Origin: Actinomycetota bacterium
GTDB lineage: Bacteria; Actinomycetota; Actinomycetes; S36-B12
Length of the DNA stretch: 57,540 bases
NCBI GenBank assembly: GCA_027729805.1
Contig: JAQCEO010000005.1
Coordinates: 1-57,540, forward strand
Direction: 5' to 3'
In this document: in pieces, positions 32,138 to 39,400 of the stretch
How the letters are laid out: each line of letters starts with the position of its first letter
How positions within the stretch are numbered: the stretch's first letter is position 1
Program-made: the position numbers and the translations under genes
Notes under the pieces: model-generated
Database searches by the model: none
What the model saw: the letters and a program-made list of their open reading frames with translations, nothing else
What the model was told of the DNA's origin: nothing

Positions 32138-32210
32138 GCCTCCGTAGCTCAGGGGATAGAGCGCCGGTTTCCGGTACCGACGGTCGCAGGTTCGAATCCT
32201 GCCGGGGGCA
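32138..32210 (+). tRNA. tRNA-Arg (anticodon CCG)
   Basis: Acceptor GCCTCCG/CGGGGGC, D arm GCTC..GAGC, anticodon loop TT-CCG-GT, T arm GCAGG-TTCGAAT-CCTGC; CCA not encoded; divergent from argS as usual. Confidence 0.95.
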
Positions 32211-37557: not shown

Positions 37558-37900
37558 TCAGTGCCTGCCCGACGGTGGAGCGCCGTCGATGACGAACTCG
37601 GTGCCAGTTGAGTAGATCGCATCAGCAATCAAGTACAGCACCAGCTTCGCCACCTCATCGGCCTCCCCAATGCGCGGGATGGGCTGGCTGGCGAACATCT
37701 CACCGAGCTCTAGGCCGGCTGTCATCGGGGTGCGGATACCACCTGGATGCAGCGAGACCACCCAGATATTGTCGCGCCCTAGGTCTAGGGCCGCGGACTT
37801 CCGCAGGCCCCGGACCCCCCACTTACTTGCCACCTAAGCCGCTCGATTCGAGTAGCCCCGCAAGCCGGCGGTTGACGAGATGTTCACGATAACCCCTGCG
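37558..37900 (-). pseudogene. 5'-truncated SDR oxidoreductase with nonsense mutation
   Basis: GVIVNISSTAGLRGYSNRAA*VASKWGVRG...HPGGIRTPM...STGTEFVIDG; catalytic Tyr codon is TAG (37834-37836); Rossmann N-terminus missing. Confidence 0.85.
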
Positions 37901-38134
37901 GCATAACAGTTTTTAGCACCTGGTGTCAGGAGGCTTTGGTCCTGATGTGTAGGTGACCCAAGGAAGTGGTTTACGCACCAGGGCGCAGCTTGCGGACACT
38001 ATTTGCACAAATTATTTGAGGTTAAACGTGCTGGAGTTGCCAGTGTTAAACATGAGGTGTTCAAAAAAAAATATTTCAAAATATTTTTGAATTCGGCTTG
38101 CGTGTTGACTTGTGTCCTGTTAGAAATTACCCAC

Positions 38135-38345
38135 TGAGCCGAAAGGCGAGGGTCAGATCGAAGAATGACAGCCGAACCGAAGGCTTGACCTACGGGAACT
38201 CTGCGTGCTGGCGGAGTTGGTTGCAGGAAGCGATGTGAGAAGTCAGAAAAGATCGGCTGGTGAACCGGAAACGGGGAGCGAGCGCGGCGGAGCTGCACAG
38301 GACGCAGGCGCCCCGAGCAATCGGGCAGAAGGCAACTGGCTTCAC
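38135..38345 (+). ncRNA. Candidate structured non-coding RNA (unassigned)
   Basis: GNRA hairpins at 38138-47, 38265-74, 38312-25; stems 38197-204/38211-18 and 38239-46/38336-43; AT-rich promoter-like region upstream and terminal hairpin downstream. Confidence 0.65.
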
Positions 38346-38384
38346 GGAAAGGCCCCTCAAACTCATACTTTGAGGGGCCTTTCC
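38346..38384. terminator. Perfect 16-bp hairpin, probably bidirectional terminator
   Basis: GGAAAGGCCCCTCAAA-CTCATAC-TTTGAGGGGCCTTTCC between the ncRNA candidate and the oleD stop. Confidence 0.88.
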
Positions 38385-38431
38385 CATGTTAGGGGTCCCT
38401 AGGCCAAGCGGGCCGTAACGCCACGCCGCAC

Positions 38432-39400
38432 TCAACCCCGCTGATACCACTTGGTCAGGCGCTCGAAACCGGTCGCCAGGCTCACATCAGGTGCCCAAGC
38501 CAGTGCCGCACACGTCTGGCGCTGATCAAACCAGTGGGCGGTGGCCAATTGCTCGACCAGGAACCGGGTAAGTGGTGGTTCGGCGCCCCGACTACCCCAG
38601 GCCCGCTCGGCCAGTTGGCCGGCCCGATACGCCGCACCAAATGGCACACTTCGTTTTGGGGCCGGTAAACCCGCCGCCCGCGTTATCTCGGTCAGCAACT
38701 CCGCAACGGTTCTCGGCTCGCCATTTGTCACTACGAACGCCCGGCCGTGGACCGTAGGTTCGGCTACCCGTTCGACGGCTGCGGCCAGCGCCGATGCGGC
38801 ATTGTCGACATAAGTGGTATCGATAAGCGCAACACCATGGTCGATCAAGAACAACCGTCCGACGCGCGCCCGAGCAATAATGCGACCAATGAGTTGCTCA
38901 TCACCTGGCCCCCAGACCAGATGCGGACGAATTGCAACTACGGCGAAATCAGGTTCATCTTCGGCCAGAGCTAGGAGTTCGGCTTGCGCTTTCGTAACGG
39001 CATACACACCGCGCGCCGTCTGCGGGTTTGCGGGCAACGCACCAGCACCGATGATCGGCATACCGTCATGCGCAACCGATGGCGATGACACGTGGACGAA
39101 ACTCCGGACACCCGCCGCCTTCGCGGACTGGAGCAGTTGGCGTGTGCCTTCCACGTTTACCGACTCAAACTCCGACCGCGATCCGGTGATCGACACCTTG
39201 GCGGCTAGGTGCACCACCCCATCAATGCCGAAGAGTGCACGAGTAAGTGCCTCGCCATCTAAGATGTCGCCTCTGACTTCGTCAAATGGCAGGCCGCTCG
39301 CTCGACGTTGAAACACCACAATTTCGTGGCCTCGGATCGCGATTGCATTGGCGGTTGCAGCACCTAGTAACCCGCTAGCACCGGTGACAAGTACTCGCAT
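38432..39400 (-). CDS. oleD: OleD-like 2-alkyl-3-oxoalkanoate reductase (extended SDR)
   Basis: TGASGLLG, HLAAK, SSPSV, YAVTK, RPHLVWGPGD; TGATG overlap with oleBC. Confidence 0.88.
   Translation of the reverse strand: MRVLVTGASGLLGAATANAIAIRGHEIVVFQRRASGLPFDEVRGDILDGEALTRALFGIDGVVHLAAKVSITGSRSEFESVNVEGTRQLLQSAKAAGVRSFVHVSSPSVAHDGMPIIGAGALPANPQTARGVYAVTKAQAELLALAEDEPDFAVVAIRPHLVWGPGDEQLIGRIIARARVGRLFLIDHGVALIDTTYVDNAASALAAAVERVAEPTVHGRAFVVTNGEPRTVAELLTEITRAAGLPAPKRSVPFGAAYRAGQLAERAWGSRGAEPPLTRFLVEQLATAHWFDQRQTCAALAWAPDVSLATGFERLTKWYQRG

Follow-up and report, generated by a model that had tools for sequence, protein, structure and literature searches.

The window analysed here is a stretch of 57,540 nt from contig JAQCEO010000005.1 (assembly GCA_027729805.1), and all window coordinates refer to it. 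Its positions 38133-38384 on the + strand almost certainly hold a stand-alone gene for an abundant and highly structured non-coding RNA, a member of a family that has no name as yet. An earlier note on this DNA had pointed to a stand-alone structured RNA at this place, and the proposal has stood: the gene has a conserved promoter of its own and a terminal hairpin, its fold is supported by covariation, RNA contigs are confined to it and no reading frame is conserved across it. The probable ends of the RNA and its transcribed strand were deduced from the promoter, the covariance model and the asymmetry of folding between the strands.

Upstream of the RNA, the genus copies of the gene all present the same signals in the same order, namely an A/T-rich tract, TTGCGT, 17 nt, TAGAAA and 6 nt, followed by A38133, which is also the first base of the covariance model R1 described below. 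The tract at 38063-38096 is UP-element-like and might act as such. The usual actinobacterial -10 element reads TANNNT, with a final T. The pattern TTG-N20-22-TA[CG]A[AC][ACT] was found 5-9 nt before the first base of the R1 model in 46 of 50 group-A genes. In its strict form the motif occurs four times in this genome, and the A/T tract accompanies it at the RNA gene only; the genome's genes for tmRNA, RNase P RNA and signal recognition particle (SRP) RNA lack it on their upstream side, and only 2 of the 48 tRNA genes carry it.

Folding of 38130-38390 gave an energy of -112.8 kcal/mol for the + strand (z = -4.40; 0 of 200 shuffles as good) versus -91.8 kcal/mol for the - strand (z = -1.92; 5 of 200 shuffles as good), which agrees with the strand that the earlier note had taken for the structured one. 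The RNA core is described by covariance model R1 (213 positions, 60 pairs), a narrow, genus-level model that leaves the terminal hairpin outside and matches 38133-38345 with 251.8 bits. Covariation was then measured in an alignment of 51 R1 matches from 9 genera, using slid partners and 500 shuffles as the null. Paired cells amounted to 91.2%, against 31-40% with slid partners; changes on both sides were present in 51 of the 60 base pairs, compensated pairs occurred in 12 of 12 helices, and none of the 500 shuffles reached the observed values. Since the alignment was fitted to R1 it leans towards the structure of the model, although the margin is still large. The resulting fold begins with a 5' hairpin and ends with the terminal hairpin; between them lie two multi-helix domains, each closed on its own and with many GNRA loops (Table 1). 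All the sequence strings listed in the earlier note were found where it had placed them, and six of its helices (P1, P5, P6, P10, P12 and the terminal hairpin) belong to the covariation-supported fold, including the long-range stem proposed to close a 3' domain of about 105 nt. Two others do not: a GGTCA/TGACC stem enclosing AGCC/GGCT is replaced by P2 and P3, and in place of a supposed CTGC/GCAG stem (38293-38307) CUGCAC forms the conserved loop of P11. Pairing between the loops of P5 and P11 reached 86.9% of cells in the 51 sequences, against 11-55% with slid partners; covariation is confined to one pair, mismatched in 11 of the 51, and another pair does not form in 29 of them. The two loops may form a kissing interaction.

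Table 1. Coordinates of the RNA gene, its promoter elements and its helices and loops in the window.
Feature	Position	Strand	Remarks
RNA gene	38133..38384	+	about 252 nt; likely start A38133, end at the foot of the terminal hairpin
A/T-rich tract upstream of -35	38063..38096	+	A/T-rich in 10 of 10 genus copies and in other genera
-35 element TTGCGT	38098..38103	+	no change within the genus
-10 element TAGAAA	38121..38126	+	17 nt after -35; last position not T
P1, 5' hairpin, GCC-GAAA-GGC	38134..38151	+	GNRA loop GAAA at 38141-44; both-side changes in 3 of 5 pairs
Domain 1	38153..38238	+	long irregular stem, then a three-way junction with hairpins P4 and P5
P2	38153-60 with 38231-38	+	both-side changes in 7 of 7 pairs
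P3	38166-73 with 38219-25	+	both-side changes in 7 of 7 pairs
P4 hairpin	38177-95	+	length variable; enlarged in one genus
P5 hairpin, AACTCTGC/GCGGAGTT	38197-218	+	both-side changes in 7 of 8 pairs
P5 loop NUGCUG	38205..38210	+	UGCUGG identical in 50 of 51 sequences
Domain 2	38239..38343	+	closed by long-range stem P6; holds P10, P11 and P12
P6 long-range stem	38239-44 with 38338-43	+	both-side changes in 6 of 6 pairs
P10, CCG-GAAA-CGG	38265-74	+	GNRA loop; both-side changes in 2 of 3 pairs
P11	38282-311	+	both-side changes in 5 of 7 pairs
P11 loop C-N-G-C-A-N	38293..38298	+	CUGCAC in the window; conserved; candidate kissing partner of the P5 loop
P12, CCCGA-GCAA-TCGGG	38312-25	+	GNRA loop; both-side changes in 4 of 5 pairs
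Terminal hairpin/terminator	38346..38384	+	16-bp stem; 7-nt loop CUCAUAC at 38362-68

RNA libraries contain the gene but not its flanks. Part of the stretch is contained in 23 RNA runs from 15 studies of lakes, rivers, estuaries and freshwater sediment, and some of these positive runs hold only 5-25 million letters. Within 37800-38700, contigs from four runs of four different studies covered 38140-38357 only and are thus confined to the gene. Summed word depth reached 274,001 in one run, contigs of relatives being included in the sum, and adapter letters adjoin the contigs at 38140-38152. The far arm of the terminal hairpin (38358-38384) lies outside the contig coverage; assembly often breaks at palindromes.

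Against the whole of Rfam 15, the window gave at the gathering score only a tRNA at 32138-32210, with no family on the RNA gene, and at E <= 10 the region 37850-38450 gave only two chance-level microRNA matches, both to the palindromic hairpin. A limited literature search found no description of this RNA. The suggestion of an unnamed actinobacterial family was thereby borne out, and the family is wider than had been guessed. By BLAST, nine of the 11 other genomes of the genus contain the stretch, with 85-94% identity across 294-300 of its 301 bases; among the genus copies the mean column identity inside the RNA is 93%, and divergence sets in right past the hairpin. At the level of the taxonomic family, full-length R1 matches were present in 71 of 151 genomes (40 of the 74 of good quality) and in 9 of 16 genera, with one copy per genome except for three genomes with two; seven genera had no R1 match, for example in 0 of 20 and 0 of 13 genomes. 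An order-level search with R1 found the RNA in 22 of 32 genomes inside the family and in 0 of 118 from other families of the order, the latter being weak evidence of absence because R1 is narrow and diverged relatives (groups D and E) do exist in the order. Group-A RNAs were also detected (R1 E-values from 2e-10 to 5e-24) in metagenome-assembled genome (MAG) records titled Bifidobacteriaceae, Micrococcales and Rubrivirga (L088, L096, L136, L138), titles that fit poorly with the rest and could stem from mislabelled or wrongly binned records. In the class-wide sample described next, several genomes of the family show two or three hairpin copies and one R1 match (G014:C19:23909, G014:C51:15267, G045:C51:7810) and may carry additional RNA genes of the superfamily.

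The terminal hairpin reaches far beyond the R1 family. Its loop CUCAUAC is the same in 48 of the 51 homologues, which had been collected without using the hairpin, and its stem is compensated, one pair being A-U in five copies and G-C in five others. The 21-nt core of the hairpin is present in at least 119 stretches of species-representative genomes, and among the matches listed are Candidatus Nanopelagicales, Nocardioidaceae, Kribbellaceae, Propionibacteriales, Jatrophihabitantaceae, Pedococcus, Phycicoccus, Longivirga, Actinomyces and others. In a class-wide sample of 401 genomes, 28 contained the hairpin with at most one mismatch; they fell into few families (11 of 21 genomes in one of them), with 0 of 31 in a Streptomyces-like family and no mycobacterium-like genome. 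Three named cultured genomes (Pedococcus sp., Phycicoccus sp. and Longivirga aurantiaca) have it in single copy, and several Nocardioidaceae and Kribbellaceae assemblies have two copies. The sequences that precede the hairpin are G+C-rich and hairpin-rich and differ strongly between groups. The promoter motif nevertheless lay on the same strand within 560 nt upstream of 64 of 82 hairpin copies, versus 0 of 75 downstream control windows, and the implied RNAs are 174-524 nt long, with a body of about 120 to 470 nt between the conserved ends. Recurring elements are the first bases (ACGCC, ACGCG, ACCGC or ACUGA), a 5' hairpin and a GGG(A)UCGG box. R1 itself gave 16 weak matches on the hairpin loci (E from 1.5e-4 to 0.71), 10 of which lay just upstream of the hairpin and on its strand, and Rfam had no family for the hairpin RNA on the 18 hairpin loci compared with it.

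These sequences make up an undescribed superfamily of actinomycete RNA genes that has kept a promoter type, its first bases, a 5' hairpin and a near-invariant 3' hairpin. We defined the superfamily by the pattern TTG-N20-22-TA[CG]A[AC][ACT], a 5' hairpin after the start and the 3' core CCUCRAACUCAUACUUYGAGG, and the window RNA has all three marks. Flanking genes vary by group (glycosyltransferase with nadD-rsfS, M4 peptidase, photolyase-related, WYL, lepA, folP), and a convergent epimerase gene is kept in one other Nanopelagicales group. A second RNA type of about 277 nt, with the same promoter, 5' start and 3' hairpin and a different body, was seen in L118, L140 and L160, records titled as Actinomycetales, Actinomycetes or Candidatus Nanopelagicales MAGs; in L160 it precedes the same convergent epimerase gene as the window RNA, and it looks like a diverged orthologue in other Nanopelagicales genera. 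In two Jatrophihabitantaceae-like records (L094:5357-5642 and L144:4675-4892) two hairpin copies stand in tandem on one strand, about 200-265 nt apart, the second preceded by a short sequence and no recognisable promoter. In a Kribbellaceae record, the small RNA Ms_IGR-5 (RF02471, 85 bits; L108:6905-7121, - strand) lies about 750 nt from the hairpin RNA gene, an adjacency that may be due to chance.

As for the neighbours of the gene in the window, a remnant of a short-chain dehydrogenase (SDR) gene lies upstream in divergent orientation (37558-37833, - strand), with a pirin gene farther upstream. Downstream, at 38432-39400 (- strand), there is an NAD-dependent epimerase/3-beta-HSD-type gene followed by an AMP-binding enzyme; it is convergent, as the earlier note had said. 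From this layout follows a putative trans-acting mode for the RNA. The SDR open reading frame (ORF) has 91 aa and matches only the C-terminal 40% of the SDR family (profile positions 145-233 of 236). As the DNA before the RNA promoter is too short for the remaining part, this is probably what is left of a truncated gene. The distance between the RNA and the pirin gene differs among genus members, from 514 to 1100 nt, and in other genera tgt or MMPL genes are found as neighbours of the RNA.

Actinobacteria mostly lack 6S RNA. In the present genome the tmRNA, SRP RNA and RNase P RNA all lie elsewhere, so that a divergent form of any of these three was rejected as an identity for the window RNA. 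The 6S and Ms1 models gave nothing in the genome at E <= 1, 6C RNA was not found in it, and its two HAD-IB loci hold no RNA gene, their gaps of 47 and 18 nt being too short for one. Among the usual abundant small RNAs, the 6S/Ms1 slot is thus the only unfilled one here. The role of 6S is taken by Ms1 and CoRP in mycobacteria, streptomycetes and corynebacteria, and the discoverers of these two expect further lineage-specific RNAs of the kind. A single abundant RNA polymerase-associating RNA per species, differing between lineages, has been proposed by them (PMC11077062).

Ms1 (RF02566; MTS2823 in M. tuberculosis, scr3559 in S. coelicolor) is, like the window RNA, the product of a stand-alone actinobacterial gene, about 230-300 nt long and very abundant, and both occur in genomes without 6S. 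Ms1 is described as starting with A and having a rho-independent terminator and short hairpins at both ends (PMC4191392), and as lying beside a gene for a HAD-IB hydrolase, 6C RNA and an oxidoreductase being close by (PMC9130861). For 824 species, Pedococcus, Phycicoccus, Nocardioides and Kribbella among them, the latter study lists predicted loci of Ms1, and it notes small-genome actinobacteria in which the synteny is kept and the RNA is lacking (PMC9130861). Some hairpin RNAs may already be filed there as Ms1 candidates; the loci that we scanned do not show the synteny required in that study. Using the published synteny, we located Ms1 in a mycobacterium-like genome, and 10 more Ms1 genes came from its order, which makes 11 Rfam-detected ones. 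In the mycobacterium-like genome 6C, HAD-IB and Ms1 follow in a row, with an RF02566 score of 235 bits (gathering score 162); a Streptomyces-like genome has 6C, HAD-IB and then the expected Ms1 locus, for which the Rfam model gives no score. Ms1 was present in 6 of 6 genomes of the mycobacterium-like family f45 and 5 of 5 of family f55.

All 11 Ms1 genes carry TTG, 20 nt and TACAAA or TAGAAA, 5-9 nt before the RNA, and their RNAs begin ACGGA or GCGGA. Ms1 and the window RNA have the same promoter type, TTG-N20-22-TA[CG]AAA, with a -10 that lacks the final T. In the Rfam consensus of Ms1, a hairpin domain on the 5' side is followed by a multiloop, which a long-range stem closes, and by a terminator. 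The two RNAs also have in common the initial A, a short hairpin domain at the 5' end, a multiloop domain that is closed internally and a hairpin that acts as terminator at the 3' end. They differ in the terminal loop, variable in Ms1 and invariant in the family of the window RNA, and in an inverted repeat of the promoter spacer, GTGAC...GTCAC, which is absent from the window RNA promoter. Most Ms1 promoters (L248-L258, L234) have this repeat, GTGAC-N6-GTCAC (or TGA.C...TCAC), between -35 and -10, where it may be the binding site of a regulator. Binding to the RNA polymerase core has been shown for Ms1 and is a proposal for the window RNA. The phenotype reported for Ms1 concerns RNA polymerase levels and outgrowth from stationary phase. 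Identification of the window RNA as Ms1 by synteny was rejected, for this genome as for six other hairpin loci scanned, the HAD-IB, 6C and oxidoreductase neighbourhood being absent.

Other known RNAs resemble it less closely or in other respects. 6S (RF00013), which stands for the functional class proposed for the window RNA, is abundant and a housekeeping RNA, some 200 nt long and equipped with a promoter and terminator, but its two ends pair to close a rod that has a large central bubble, whereas the ends of the window RNA are separate local hairpins. The raiA motif RNA of Actinobacteria and Firmicutes is another RNA of about 200 nt with multi-stem junctions, conserved across families and of unknown function; no Rfam family of such orphan RNAs matched the window RNA, and we know of no orphan non-coding RNA with an invariant terminator loop or with this promoter. 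The abundant, structured and lineage-specific CoRP of Corynebacterium, a group without 6S and Ms1, sets a precedent for lineages lacking both that carry an RNA polymerase-associating RNA of their own (PMC11077062). CoRP has 516 nt, lies between tRNA-Glu genes, is cleaved into two fragments and has reported homologues only in Corynebacterium (PMC11077062); compared by description only, the window RNA is unlike it in length and synteny.

The window RNA would be a protein-binding housekeeping RNA, and we tentatively place first the possibility that it is the abundant RNA polymerase-associating RNA of its lineage, working like Ms1 or CoRP, because it is abundant, structured and mostly single-copy, has an Ms1-type promoter, occurs where the 6S/Ms1 slot is unfilled and fits the published proposal of lineage RNAs. 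It would then be a functional counterpart of Ms1, which binds the polymerase core, of 6S, which binds the holoenzyme, and of CoRP, which binds both. The folded body would dock on the polymerase and keep the supply of free enzyme buffered, and the invariant hairpin would have three tasks: terminating transcription, shielding the 3' end and offering a site for sequence-specific recognition. Several observations weigh against this proposal or the signals on which it draws. A simple scan for consensus sigma-70 promoters and terminators reported neither signal for the gene and gave a single chance-level terminator on the wrong strand, the real signals having escaped it because a -10 without final T and a weak U-tract do not fit its consensus. 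The RNA contigs show neither strand, ends nor true abundance, and those of relatives are summed into the depth. The fold supported by covariation has two branched domains, and is not a rod with a central bubble. RF00013, a model that found 6S in 5 of 14 control genomes, had no match in the region at E <= 10 or in the genome at E <= 1, and the same thresholds gave no match to RF02566 in 37850-38450 or in the genome. In the opposite direction, R1 run with filters off on 12 Ms1 loci found nothing significant, the best overlap with an Ms1 gene having E = 1. The motif GCUUGGUAACC, situated near the 3' end of mycobacterial and Streptomyces-like Ms1, is absent, and the gene adjoins neither HAD-IB nor 6C, having tgt or other genes and the convergent epimerase instead. 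Finally, an Ms1-like promoter could mean shared regulation and not shared function.

The same comparison bears on whether the window RNA is a true, highly diverged homologue of Ms1, which would have kept the promoter, the first bases and the end hairpins and moved away from the HAD-IB/6C locus. An unusual promoter found on all 11 Ms1 genes as well as on 46 of 50 group-A genes, similar starts (ACGGA in Ms1, ACUGA, ACCGC and ACGCC here), a similar modular layout and the fact that Ms1 and the hairpin were not seen together in the samples (no hairpin in the mycobacterium-like f45 and in 0 of 31 genomes of the Streptomyces-like f31) all speak for it, and the failed match is not decisive, because RF02566 also misses the Streptomyces-like Ms1 locus and is weak evidence for that reason. 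Profiles matched in neither direction, however, synteny is not shared, the 3' motif of Ms1 is missing, and Ms1 terminator loops vary where the loop is invariant here. The promoter, size, start and end hairpins are compatible with Ms1 membership and do not establish it, and we regard homology as doubtful. Slightly more doubtful is the broader idea of one ancient family, Ms1 included, as the abundant polymerase-associating RNA of most Actinomycetes: its promoter, first bases and end hairpins would be fixed and its body remodelled from lineage to lineage (174-524 nt), and in several families, abundant freshwater plankton among them, the invariant loop would be a recognition site, possibly an anticodon-loop mimic, that couples the RNA to a second partner.

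The remaining readings leave polymerase aside. A base-pairing regulatory RNA using the P5 loop UGCUGG or the terminal loop CUCAUAC as its seed would agree with a stand-alone gene bearing promoter and terminator and with loops that are invariant between genera while stems vary; nevertheless, a length of some 250 nt, the 12 helices conserved in it and its three GNRA loops go far beyond seed-type small RNAs, and very high abundance and occurrence across orders with a freely changing body better suit a protein partner, which makes this reading unlikely. We consider it improbable that the terminal hairpin imitates a tRNA(CAU) anticodon stem-loop and ties the RNA to the translation apparatus, whether to methionyl-tRNA synthetase, the lysidine synthetase TilS or the ribosomal P site on AUG. 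Like anticodon loops, CUCAUAC has 7 nt, with U as the second and a purine as the sixth letter; it shares 6 of 7 letters with CUCAUAA, the loop of all three tRNA(CAU) genes in this genome, its constancy among family members is as given above, and the common variant CUCAUGC retains CAU. Still, we estimate that a 6/7 match to one of about 40 distinct anticodon loops would arise by chance a few times in 100, the hairpin stem has 9-16 bp and an anticodon stem 5, one genome with CUCGUAC has lost CAU, and no tie to any such translation protein was found; the likeness is a lead, not a finding. Hardly credible, lastly, is a gene for a small protein (in the 65-aa ORF 38205-38402 or a different frame), or a role as antisense or cis-regulatory element for one of the neighbours. 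The codon column at 38205 is always of start type (GTG 37, ATG 11 and TTG 3 of 51), but this column belongs to the invariant P5 loop, and the long open frames that do occur are expected at this G+C content. ORF length from this column runs from 4 to 150 or more aa in the 51 sequences, the frame that runs through the terminal hairpin is any of the three, depending on the genome, variable genus columns fall on codon positions 1, 2 and 3 in 14, 21 and 16 cases, two genus members have 1-nt gaps, and Pfam gave no match for any of the three ORFs scanned; a small protein was rejected for its unconserved frame and ORF length. As to the neighbours, the next gene is convergent and the upstream one divergent, and the RNA contigs end at the edges of the gene.

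Whatever its function, the window RNA represents a new covariation-supported RNA family outside Rfam 15. Metatranscriptomes of lakes and estuaries contain it at very high levels, and as long as it is not recognised it will count among their 'unassigned' reads. An invariant terminator loop across families with completely different RNA bodies is unusual and points to a conserved partner. Under the polymerase-associating reading that we tentatively prefer, the gene is a concrete and testable candidate for the RNA polymerase-associating RNA of uncultured freshwater actinobacteria and, via the superfamily, also for that of the cultured Pedococcus, Phycicoccus and Longivirga.

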